A DNA stretch of 8,569 bases. It comes from Histomonas meleagridis 2922-C6/04-290x (lineage: Eukaryota > Protista > Parabasalia). The notes under the pieces are model-generated. The model ran no database searches, was not told the DNA's origin, and was given only the letters and a program-made list of their open reading frames with translations. Of the stretch, positions 1,946-4,264 are shown one piece after another (within the stretch, counting starts at the first letter, position 1; every line of letters starts with the position of its first letter). The position numbers and the translations under genes were made by a program. The DNA is taken from NCBI GenBank assembly GCA_020184695.1, contig JAANOX010000166.1, positions 1 to 8,569 of the forward strand. The letters are read 5' to 3'.

Positions 1946-4264
1946 TTAGCTCATATTTATTAATTTCTTTATCGGATCACTTGAATTTTCACAGTATTCT
2001 TTAATCTTCGGTGTGCAATGGTAATAATAACTTCCATCGACACACTTACCAATAAAATTTTCGGGAGATTTAAAATATATCTCGGTGAAAACATGTTCAA
2101 TCTTAAACTTACCGAGTTCATTACCAATAAATCCTTTATCTTTCAATAACATAAAATCTTCTTCTGATATTAACGCAGAATCAACTTTGGAGTAATAGAC
2201 TTTCACAAGATTATTTATCAAACCCATTTTGTTATTAAAATTATCTAAAACACTTTTCGCAAATTGTGGATAAGTGAAATTTTTCAACAAACGGATTGAC
2301 TGTATCAACAAATCCTGAAATTCCATCTGCATTATAAGTGTATTTTAATACATAAGGTGCGAATTCATCAATATACTTATTAACGTTATTTACAAATTTA
2401 TGTTTTATAATTTTTGGTTTTTGTATTGAAACACCCCAGCAGCTATTCATCAAAAATTTAAGTGTTATTGACAATTTATCTTTTCCCAATAATTTGGCTT
2501 TCATTCTTGCATCATATAATTTTTCTATTAACTCTTTTACCTTTGTGTTTTCTTCTTTAAACTTTCCGTTGACGTCAGGTAATCCAGCAGGAATTGATTG
2601 AACACTTGACATATACGCACCGCATTGATCAATATAATAAAGTTTTTGTTTTAAATAAATCTTATTCCAAATAATTTTTGGAAAATGAATTTCAGATCTT
2701 ATTTTATCTGCAATCTCTCCAGAAAATGAATATACATTATCAAAACATCCGAACTCAAACATTATCTTTTGCATTAATTCAGAAAATTTATAATATCTTG
2801 ATACATTAATTCTTTTTCTTAATTTCAACGAATCAATAACTTCTTGAAGTTCTTTTTAATCTCTCCGGGATTTCATTTTCTTCTGGAATGTATCCAAAGA
2901 AACTTTTTGTTTGAGGCGTCTGCTGGAGCAGACTTGTCTGCGACTTAACTTTTTTAGAATAAATCGATAAAGGTTTTTTATCAGCAACAAATATTTTTCT
3001 ATAAGAATTAAATGTTTTTTCGTTTGATTTCTTATAACTCCATGAAAGCTTATTTATTGTTTGTTGATTCATTGGAATTAAAAGTTTATGTTGTATCATT
3101 AAATAAACCAAGCTTCTTATACCAAGAGATTTTTTAGAAAACGAATATCTTTTGTCATCAAATTTCAATAACATCATTTTTCTGTTATGATTTTTAAATC
3201 TTGAATCAGCATTTATTTTATCATAATTCTTTATATAACATTCCGATACATTAACTTTAGAATTTAGCATATAATGATCCTCAATAATTATTAGTTTTAT
3301 TTCTCTGTTGTAATTTTCGCCAAATACCTTTCTTGATGTATTTTTAGTTTCTGAATAAAATATTTTGACTTCAATTTTGATTTTTAATAAATCAGAAATT
3401 CTTTTTAACTCACTTCTTGGAACAGTTCGCGTTTGAATAAAACTCTTCAGTAATTCTAACTCATCTTCTTTCAATACTTCTGAAGCAATAAATGCTTGAA
3501 TTAAACATGATTCATTTATATTAGAATCATTAACGTCTGTAAATATTCCAAATTTTTCTTAAATCAATATCTGACGTGTTGATATAAGGAAAGAATCCTG
3601 GATTTATTCTCTTTCCTTTTTTGAAATCTTTAAATTCAAAATGAATGGTTTTAATAAATAACATATGTTCAAACACAACATCGTTCGTATCACCAATCAC
3701 TCTTTCATTATTTAATCCAGCACGTAAAAATTCAACTGTATTTTTGTTTGCATGCAAATATTGTTCTCTTCCGTCTTCATCAATTAAAGTCATTTTAATA
3801 TCTTTATTAATTTTAGGTCCTGCTGTTTCAATCGCATACATCAAAGCAGAAAGAAATGTATCAATACTTGATTTGTTTTCAAACGTAAAATCTTTTTGTT
3901 TCATTAAATTTTTTGTCAATTTATTTGTTAAATTAAATACTTCACGTTTAAAATCTTCTGATTCATTTTTGAAAAATCCATCTTTCTTTTCACTAAAACG
4001 TTCAAATGAATCTTTATTTTTCGATTCATTATCACTTAAAGGAAGATTCATTAAATTATTAATTTCCTCTGGGATGTATTCTGCTCTTCCTCTTGATATT
4101 CTATATCTTAACTGATTAACACTTAATCTTATATGATTTTGATATTGTTCGTCATAAACTTCAAGTGGAGTTGAAGTATTTCTATAAACAAAATTTTTCG
4201 GTAAAGTGTATCCGTATTTTTCAAATAAATTTCTAACTTCTTTTTTGTCTAATTTTTTTGGCAT
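1946..4264 (-). pseudogene. Family B DNA polymerase of protein-primed (Maverick-type) ancestry, divergent; about 771 aa once three +1 frameshifts are corrected (true pseudogene or homopolymer sequencing errors)
   Basis: Removing one A from each coding-strand A5 run (plus-strand T5 at 3553-3557, 2853-2857 and 2280-2284) joins ORFs 3530-4264, 2833-3474, 2241-2828 and 1946-2332 into one stop-free frame. The junctions then read DLRK-FGIF, ERLK-ELQE and PFVE-NFTY. Motif A-like YYIDQCGAYMSS..IPAG (Asp 2628-2630), motif B-like KFLMNSCWG (2433-2459), motif C-like YYSKVDS (Asp 2180-2182), and C-terminal GNELGKFKIE. Confidence 0.85.

Follow-up and report, generated by a model that had tools for sequence, protein, structure and literature searches.

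The window, that is, the whole stretch of 8,569 nucleotides analysed here, contains a gene for a family B DNA polymerase of the protein-primed type (pPolB) that belongs to a conserved family in which both the exonuclease domain and TPR1 have been deleted, and purifying selection, judged from substitution ratios, acts on this family. In textbooks, protein-primed polymerases are recognised by having both TPR1 and TPR2, and the docking of the terminal protein (TP) is held to require TPR1. As TPR1 is missing, the family is a pPolB derivative and not a canonical member. A conserved family without TPR1 appears to be new in the literature searched, whereas the loss of the exonuclease and of the first Asp of motif C is already known. 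Intact copies are likely to be active DNA polymerases without proofreading. With odds that we place a little better than even, the intact protein would prime on a Ser/Thr of its own TP-like domain (D1), be cut by its own vOTU protease and then elongate without proofreading.

The polymerase gene of the window

The complete gene (Table 1) was delimited with P0003, an intact relative of 768 aa that is 79-80% identical over the query and whose residues 1-767 are covered in the window by four tblastn HSPs with 63-80% identity. The order of the domains is a small N-domain, the TP-like domain, vOTU, a linker, the palm with fingers and TPR2, and a short thumb. The start of the gene lies outside the region considered in the preliminary description (1946..3275), and the roughly 215 residues that it placed before motif A begin in fact at the His of the OTU-type protease. 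The distances reported there were re-measured at codon level and hold: 57 codons separate the motif A Asp from the motif B Lys, and 277 nt, equal to 92 codons across a one-base frameshift, separate this Lys from the motif C Asp. Both values are identical in P0003.

Three one-base frameshifts, all of them in T runs (near 3553-3555, inside the vOTU domain, and near 2853 and 2280), split the gene of the window into four reading-frame pieces, and they may reflect either a true pseudogene or an assembly slip. That the odd features of the polymerase stem as a whole from faulty assembly or from the decay of a single dead copy is hardly credible, because more than 100 relatives with long open frames carry the same deletions, and in the contigs of other copies, from the same four DNA runs, one base differs from the window at each of the three frameshift sites. 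Private decay as the origin of the deletions is ruled out by the family spacings and by dN/dS, and it survives as an explanation for the frameshifts only.

Short GC-rich hairpin-like inserts were observed at 2915-2944, 1524-1575 and 1827-1878. The first of them (30 nt) adds 10 in-frame codons and is missing in one related contig; in-frame GC-rich inserts of similar kind occur in many relatives.

Table 1. Features of the window, with positions numbered on the forward strand
Feature	Position	Strand	Basis or remark
Whole reduced polymerase gene	1946..4264	-	Intact P0003 matches in four HSPs (tblastn)
N-terminal domain, ~62 aa	4079..4264	-	Common to exonuclease-less sister clade; model pLDDT 75-86
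TP-like (D1) alpha/beta domain, likely protein primer	3620..3940	-	Boundaries approximate
Candidate linking Thr (D-T-N)	3686..3688	-	Low-confidence loop between D1 helix 2 and last strand
vOTU cysteine-protease domain	3265..3600	-	Cys 3505-3507, His 3274-3276
Linker and last helix of deleted exonuclease domain	2830..3264	-	Gap pattern of profile alignment, motif scan
Motif A, DQCGAYMS	2607..2630	-	Catalytic Asp codon 2628-2630; steric-gate Tyr kept
TPR1 deletion junction	2559..2579	-	Stub joins GxP after motif A to pre-fingers strand
Motif B, KFLMNSCWG	2433..2459	-	Lys codon 2457-2459; Trp replaces usual Tyr
TPR2-sized insert	2276..2426	-	Strand-helix-strand-strand in model; aligns with same region of full pPolBs
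Motif C, YSKVDS	2177..2194	-	Catalytic second Asp codon 2180-2182; first Asp replaced
Shortened C-terminus/thumb	1946..2176	-	KxY motif degenerate in window's subclade; alignment columns 728-733
Conserved gene of same element family	441..1025	+	tblastn matches in 22/52 loci
KilA-N gene	1083..1760	-	Pfam PF04383, E 2e-23
Inverted-repeat-bounded unit	5238..8410	+	121-nt arms, 92% complementary
Primase/SF3-helicase gene (Prim-Pol), decayed	5538-7397	+	DUF5906 and phage primase matches

A conserved family under selection

A search with the motif A-B fragment yielded 82 longer proteins and 78 cluster representatives, and the spacings were counted on 130 stored proteins of at least 560 aa, in 116 of which motifs A, B and C could all be located. 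The distance between motifs A and B is 48-68 in 111 of these proteins, whereas the remaining five (121-148) are longer-type relatives. Intact genes of the family encode 700-830 aa. The family alignment comprises 69 sequences, one of them an intermediate, with a mean column identity of 30% and eight invariant columns, including the protease residues Cys260 and His337, the catalytic Asp542, Lys599 and Asp691, and Gly607. The catalytic Asp residues of motifs A and C, whose retention had been proposed for the window, are found in 69/69 sequences each; the same is true for the Lys and the Gly of motif B. The steric gate is Tyr in 65 sequences and Phe in the other four, Trp occupies its motif B position in 55/69, and the first position of motif C is Asn (42 sequences), Lys (26) or Trp (1).

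Regarding selection, dN/dS lies between 0.08 and 0.2 for the polymerase part. The pair L029/L030 gave 0.04 (41.5 silent and 7.5 replacement changes), L003/L010 gave 0.17 in the polymerase part (where a dS of 1.4 is close to saturation), and the palm piece of the window compared with L003 gave 0.20. Two close pairs gave 0.42 and 0.61 on few changes, and the median is 0.34 over the 129 pairs, out of 351, for which dS could be used; these pairs are not independent of each other. Ratios below 1, together with the recurrence of the short A-B distance, bear out a conserved deletion rather than neutral decay.

It could be thought that the protein is dead as a polymerase or repurposed, and that what maintains it is its vOTU protease or its ability to bind DNA, with the palm as a scaffold. 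The altered motifs (Pro to Met in A, Tyr to Trp in B, first Asp lost in C) fit this idea, as does the fact that most members fall below the detection limit of PF03175 and that the Atlas clusters are unnamed. However, 69 diverse sequences all have the two Asp that bind metal, the Lys that binds dNTP and an aromatic steric gate, and the polymerase part shows low dN/dS, so that this explanation is considered improbable. PF03175 misses most of the family, and the neighbours of P0003 in the Atlas are clusters of 'hypothetical protein'; because of this near-invisibility to Pfam and this labelling, elements carrying such polymerases have likely been overlooked, as if they had no polymerase, in gut metagenomes and in the genomes of parabasalids.

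Outside this set, the scan of IMG/VR with the family alignment gave 10 distant loci, six with full-type pPolBs and two (L047 and L048) with phage-type PolBs; no relatives were found in IMG/VR with the window fragment or with the alignment of the intermediate clade, and a phage search for an outgroup returned nothing beyond short matches in six records. Four presumed RNA runs gave scattered low-depth pieces, which have no bearing on expression. One protein (P0084) joins a bacterial HisB-like sequence, recognised by eye, to a polymerase of the family and is probably a metagenome misassembly. Besides, in 21 loci in the range L006-L028, two types of N-terminal/TP region, 70-82% alike, are mixed on vOTU-polymerase parts that are 97-100% identical; these mosaics may come from recombination or from chimeric assembly of repeats.

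Domains lost from the polymerase

Three grades can be compared by the median distances from vOTU His to motif A, from A to B, from B to C and from C to the end of the protein. These are 394, 135, 99 and 147 in full pPolBs (12 aligned), 242, 122, 98 and 76 in the exonuclease-less grade (27 aligned), and 208, 57, 87 and 76 in the minimal grade, which includes the window type (69 aligned), the first distance being ~185 aa shorter in the minimal grade than in full pPolBs. Motif C reads DTDS in the full proteins and mostly NTDC or NTDS in the exonuclease-less grade.

The motif scan detected Exo I, II and III patterns in 14/15, 13/15 and 14/15 full-length proteins, respectively, and in none of the 69 family members or the 13 intermediates, in agreement with their reported absence before motif A. 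A wide fold search with the whole P0003 model, which carries little weight for residues 345-430, placed no exonuclease-type chain among the best 50 matches. When the family and full pPolB profiles were aligned by hhalign (probability 100%, E 2.6e-52), clean gaps appeared at the exonuclease and at TPR1, and these gaps and the shorter spacings substantiate the view of a miniaturised PolB from which both parts have been deleted.

The gap at TPR1 is single and clean, it opens immediately behind the GxP downstream of motif A, and it amounts to ~75 aa against full relatives and ~62 aa against the exonuclease-less sister clade in the profile alignment; the A-B spacing of 57 compares with 132-148 in 12 full relatives. 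The positions of phi29 polymerase that match the deleted segment begin near residue 267, and this segment corresponds to TPR1. The TPR1 loop of phi29 (304-314) is located inside it (PMC6921018). On the other side of the fingers, the B-C spacing (82-101 in the minimal grade) corresponds to a TPR2 region for which strands are predicted and which aligns with that of full pPolBs, so the TPR2-sized insert noted earlier is confirmed. YxGG is degenerate in the family.

Domains retained

The AlphaFold2 model of P0003 (pLDDT 86) has phi29 polymerase as its best PDB match (Z 17.4, rmsd 3.3, 271 aligned, residues 436-768), and RNA-primed PolBs rank next (Z 13.0). Motifs A, B and C and the catalytic carboxylates are placed on a PolB palm, which makes the protein a family B DNA polymerase. 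Among viral proteins, the pPolB of mavirus is the best fold match both for this model and for the model of the TP+vOTU region (E 5.7e-4 for the latter).

The two domains that precede the linker between vOTU and motif A are homologous to the pre-exonuclease domains of full polinton pPolBs. The second of these domains, folded by itself from L003 (pLDDT 81.5), resembles OTU proteases: in a comparison with 48,161 chains, 13 reached a Z of at least 5 and 12 of these are OTU domains (highest Z 6.4, with rmsd 3.2 and 95 aligned). This similarity of fold is modest, yet Cys and His are each conserved in 69/69 sequences of the family alignment, as in the vOTU of polinton-type pPolBs, and the domain is therefore assigned to the OTU-fold proteases.

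Regarding D1, its C-terminal half aligns with the segment that precedes vOTU in full pPolBs and its alpha/beta layout is as described for PRD1-like terminal proteins, in which the linking residue sits in the loop that leads from helix 2 to the final strand (PMC11161782). In the present proteins this loop is disordered, and a Ser/Thr occupies it in 68/69 family members, 12/13 intermediates and 13/15 full relatives. D1 gives a weak fold match to the little-finger domains of Y-polymerases (Z 4.1, with rmsd 4.6 over 86 aligned), and methyltransferase domains rank higher; for this reason D1 is described as a likely terminal-protein-like primer domain, on the basis of where it lies, of its homology at profile level and of a single residue. 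The preliminary description had suggested that the enzyme may no longer be protein-primed, and the conservation of both domains and of their key residues argues against it.

Probable order of the losses

A tree was constructed from 49 rows and 526 shared columns, leaving out L047 and L048 as phage-type PolBs. The minimal clade (support 100/98) and the clade that lacks the exonuclease but keeps TPR1 (100/99) are sisters (100/100) and are nested in full pPolBs; the nearest outgroup of the window family is formed by the full-length PF03175 relatives of polinton type. The simplest order is that exonuclease loss and thumb shortening came first and TPR1 loss second, in a tree whose rooting is not clean: the outgroup does not fall on one side of a branch, and the direction of the changes therefore rests on the fact that phi29 and all the full relatives have exonuclease and TPR1. 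The first Asp of motif C would also have gone at the stage of exonuclease loss, in a stepwise shrinkage from full polinton pPolBs. The ~62-aa N-terminal domain aligns across the start of the minimal and exonuclease-less alignments.

The proteins of the sister clade (P0183, P0190-P0215, P0172 and P0173; ~870-1,030 aa), from which the exonuclease has been lost and in which a TPR1-sized region is kept, have no match in Pfam and are apparently previously undescribed. Together with the full-length relatives they complete a comparison series of three steps.

Predicted mechanism of replication

Specificity in phi29 is set by TPR1, to which the intermediate domain of TP, here a separate protein, binds (PMC6921018, PMC4974454), and a deletion of 6 residues in a TPR1 loop is enough to make both the binding of TP and the stabilisation of the primer less effective (PMC6921018). 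In the polymerases described here, the Ser/Thr of the D1 loop would accept the first dNMP at the end of a linear element. The primer domain being tethered in the same chain, the docking surface of TPR1 would be less needed and could be dispensable. Thereafter, vOTU would cleave the primer domain off, and the palm would elongate without proofreading, perhaps in the error-prone manner suggested before, with some strand opening provided by TPR2 and a weaker grip on DNA than that of phi29 polymerase. The absence of the first motif C Asp is compatible with catalysis, as it is also missing in active PolBs, and a TP-vOTU-palm architecture has been described (PMC11161782).

Processivity is the main doubt about this scheme. 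The processivity ring of phi29 polymerase is built by palm, thumb, TPR1 and TPR2, and its unwinding tunnel by TPR2 and the exonuclease (PMC4974454); as TPR1 and the exonuclease are missing and the thumb is short, ring and tunnel would be incomplete in the family. Exonuclease loss has been found to go with helicase gain (PMC11161782). In loci of up to 16 kb, none of the recurring neighbours could be recognised as a helicase, the ends of the element lying beyond the contigs. A real rival is consequently an enzyme that acts as initiator only, which attaches a first nucleotide, or a short oligomer, to the TP domain while host or helper-virus replication proteins copy the rest. The parts that were lost or degraded (exonuclease, TPR1, thumb tip, YxGG and KxY) serve DNA holding and elongation, and no variation is seen in TP, vOTU or the catalytic core, as that rival would have it. 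Nevertheless, TPR2 is near full size and its role is in processivity and strand displacement (PMC3511435, PMC4974454), and there is no candidate for the host partner; an initiator-only role is thus rated as unlikely, although well worth keeping in mind.

Going further than self-priming with elongation, the family could be a minimal self-priming replicase, the first pPolB lineage to initiate without TPR1, exonuclease or a dedicated helicase, with many copies in the genomes of gut protists and with swappable primer modules. This is proposed tentatively, as something that we would sooner doubt than accept; if true, freedom from the specificity encoded by TPR1 would let primer modules swap on an identical polymerase, to which the mosaics of N-terminal/TP types in the 21 loci would correspond.

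The neighbouring Prim-Pol unit

The preliminary description had also considered that the polymerase may depend on the Prim-Pol gene, and in such a scheme protein priming would have been lost and primers supplied by this neighbour. TPR1 is gone, the primase/SF3-helicase gene lies 1.3 kb from the polymerase gene, exonuclease loss is often accompanied by a helicase (PMC11161782), and the action may be in trans. However, Prim-Pol was found in 0/52 related polymerase loci, it is bounded by inverted repeats of its own (Table 1), and its frame is interrupted by three in-frame stops. In run X3 its contig depth is ~8 as against 1,100-5,600 over the polymerase, depth not being copy number, and the same contrast is seen in X1, X2 and X4 of the same study. 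The conserved Ser/Thr of the TP loop and the vOTU dyad stand against it too. Dependence on Prim-Pol is accordingly very unlikely and the unit stays, by present evidence, outside the polymerase system.

Most simply, the unit is a separate and rare element, possibly an undescribed small mobile element or a plasmid remnant. A 42-base stretch of its repeat matched 0/42 loci, and the scan of IMG/VR with Prim-Pol gave no relatives. Tandem repeats of 62-63 nt lie beside or inside both ends of the 3.2-kb unit.

Comparison with known polymerases

The polinton/Maverick pPolB (TP-vOTU-EXO-PALM; PMC11161782) shares with the family a homologous TP-like domain, vOTU with Cys/His, palm, fingers and TPR2. Unlike it, the family has neither exonuclease, TPR1 nor the first motif C Asp, its C-terminus is halved, and it carries the extra ~62-aa N-terminal domain, in ~770 aa as compared with ~1,050-1,200. 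The pPolB of the virophage mavirus (TP-vOTU-PALM, 617 aa) has an exonuclease remnant only and no first motif C Asp (PMC11161782), as in the family; it is reported to have TPR1, TPR2 and a separate SF3 helicase, unlike the family. Judging from the nesting of the family in other full pPolBs, its exonuclease loss would be independent of that of mavirus, which is outside the tree. In the Tlr1-like/transpoviron pPolB-S1H fusions ('PRT-pPolBs'), TP, vOTU and palm are kept and the exonuclease is lost, again as in the family, but they are reported to have TPR1, TPR2 and a fused SF1 helicase (PMC13215967), whereas TPR1 and any fused helicase are missing from the family.

The polymerase of phi29 has the equivalent motif A and C Asp, Lys and steric-gate Tyr; its separate, unrelated TP docked via TPR1, full exonuclease and full thumb differ from the family. 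The piPolB of pipolins presents a non-canonical motif C and KxY, as the family does, and differs in being primer-independent, with exonuclease, TPR1 and TPR2 and without TP or vOTU (PMC5695915).

Losses of the exonuclease and of the first Asp are known in pPolBs (mavirus, Tlr1-like), with TPR1 and TPR2 retained according to PMC11161782 and PMC13215967. No report of a TPR1-less pPolB was found in the full-text literature searched (main texts, with few subscription papers), and such proteins could be present in the datasets of PMC13215967 or the SI of PMC11161782. A natural family without TPR1 and with primer domain and protease makes it directly testable whether a fused primer can replace TPR1; besides, its polymerase core of ~310 residues could serve as a minimal scaffold.

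Element context and host

Relatives were found in 42 metagenome loci, many of them titled human gut. The loci of at least 4 kb show a recurring array: an integrase-like gene, three unknown genes, a capsid-like gene of 540-560 aa and a small gene, followed by the counterpart of window 441-1025, then the polymerase, an A32 ATPase and genes that look by eye like minor capsid proteins. The A32-like packaging ATPase (cluster C6 in 17 related loci; PF04665, E 2.6e-6) and the capsid-like gene (19 related loci) are located outside the window, and one cluster among the Atlas neighbours has 24% of members that carry PF16903. The integrase-like gene, present in 13 loci, has at best an IS481-family match with E 0.038 and a DDE-like pattern by eye, and gave no match in the PDB. 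No maturation protease was recognised by Pfam among the cluster representatives.

In other loci the homologue of 441..1025 is directly upstream of the polymerase, head-to-tail. In the window, this gene faces the polymerase with the KilA-N gene between them, and the arrangement over 441-1760 may correspond to a rearranged copy or to a different subfamily. Upstream of the polymerase, at 4305-4862, the window also contains a poxvirus A22/RuvC-type Holliday junction resolvase, which was not found in the 52 related loci.

The commonest taxon among the Atlas neighbours of P0003 is Parabasalia, on few records, a DUF4108 gene flanks L002, and KilA-N is typical of parabasalid polintons (10.1101/2024.03.23.586382). 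From these three observations the host of the family is likely a parabasalid, and the virus-like elements that carry the polymerase likely live in gut parabasalid protists. Related to this, the polintons of Metamonada are still counted as unplaced in a 2026 preprint (10.64898/2026.06.19.733378).
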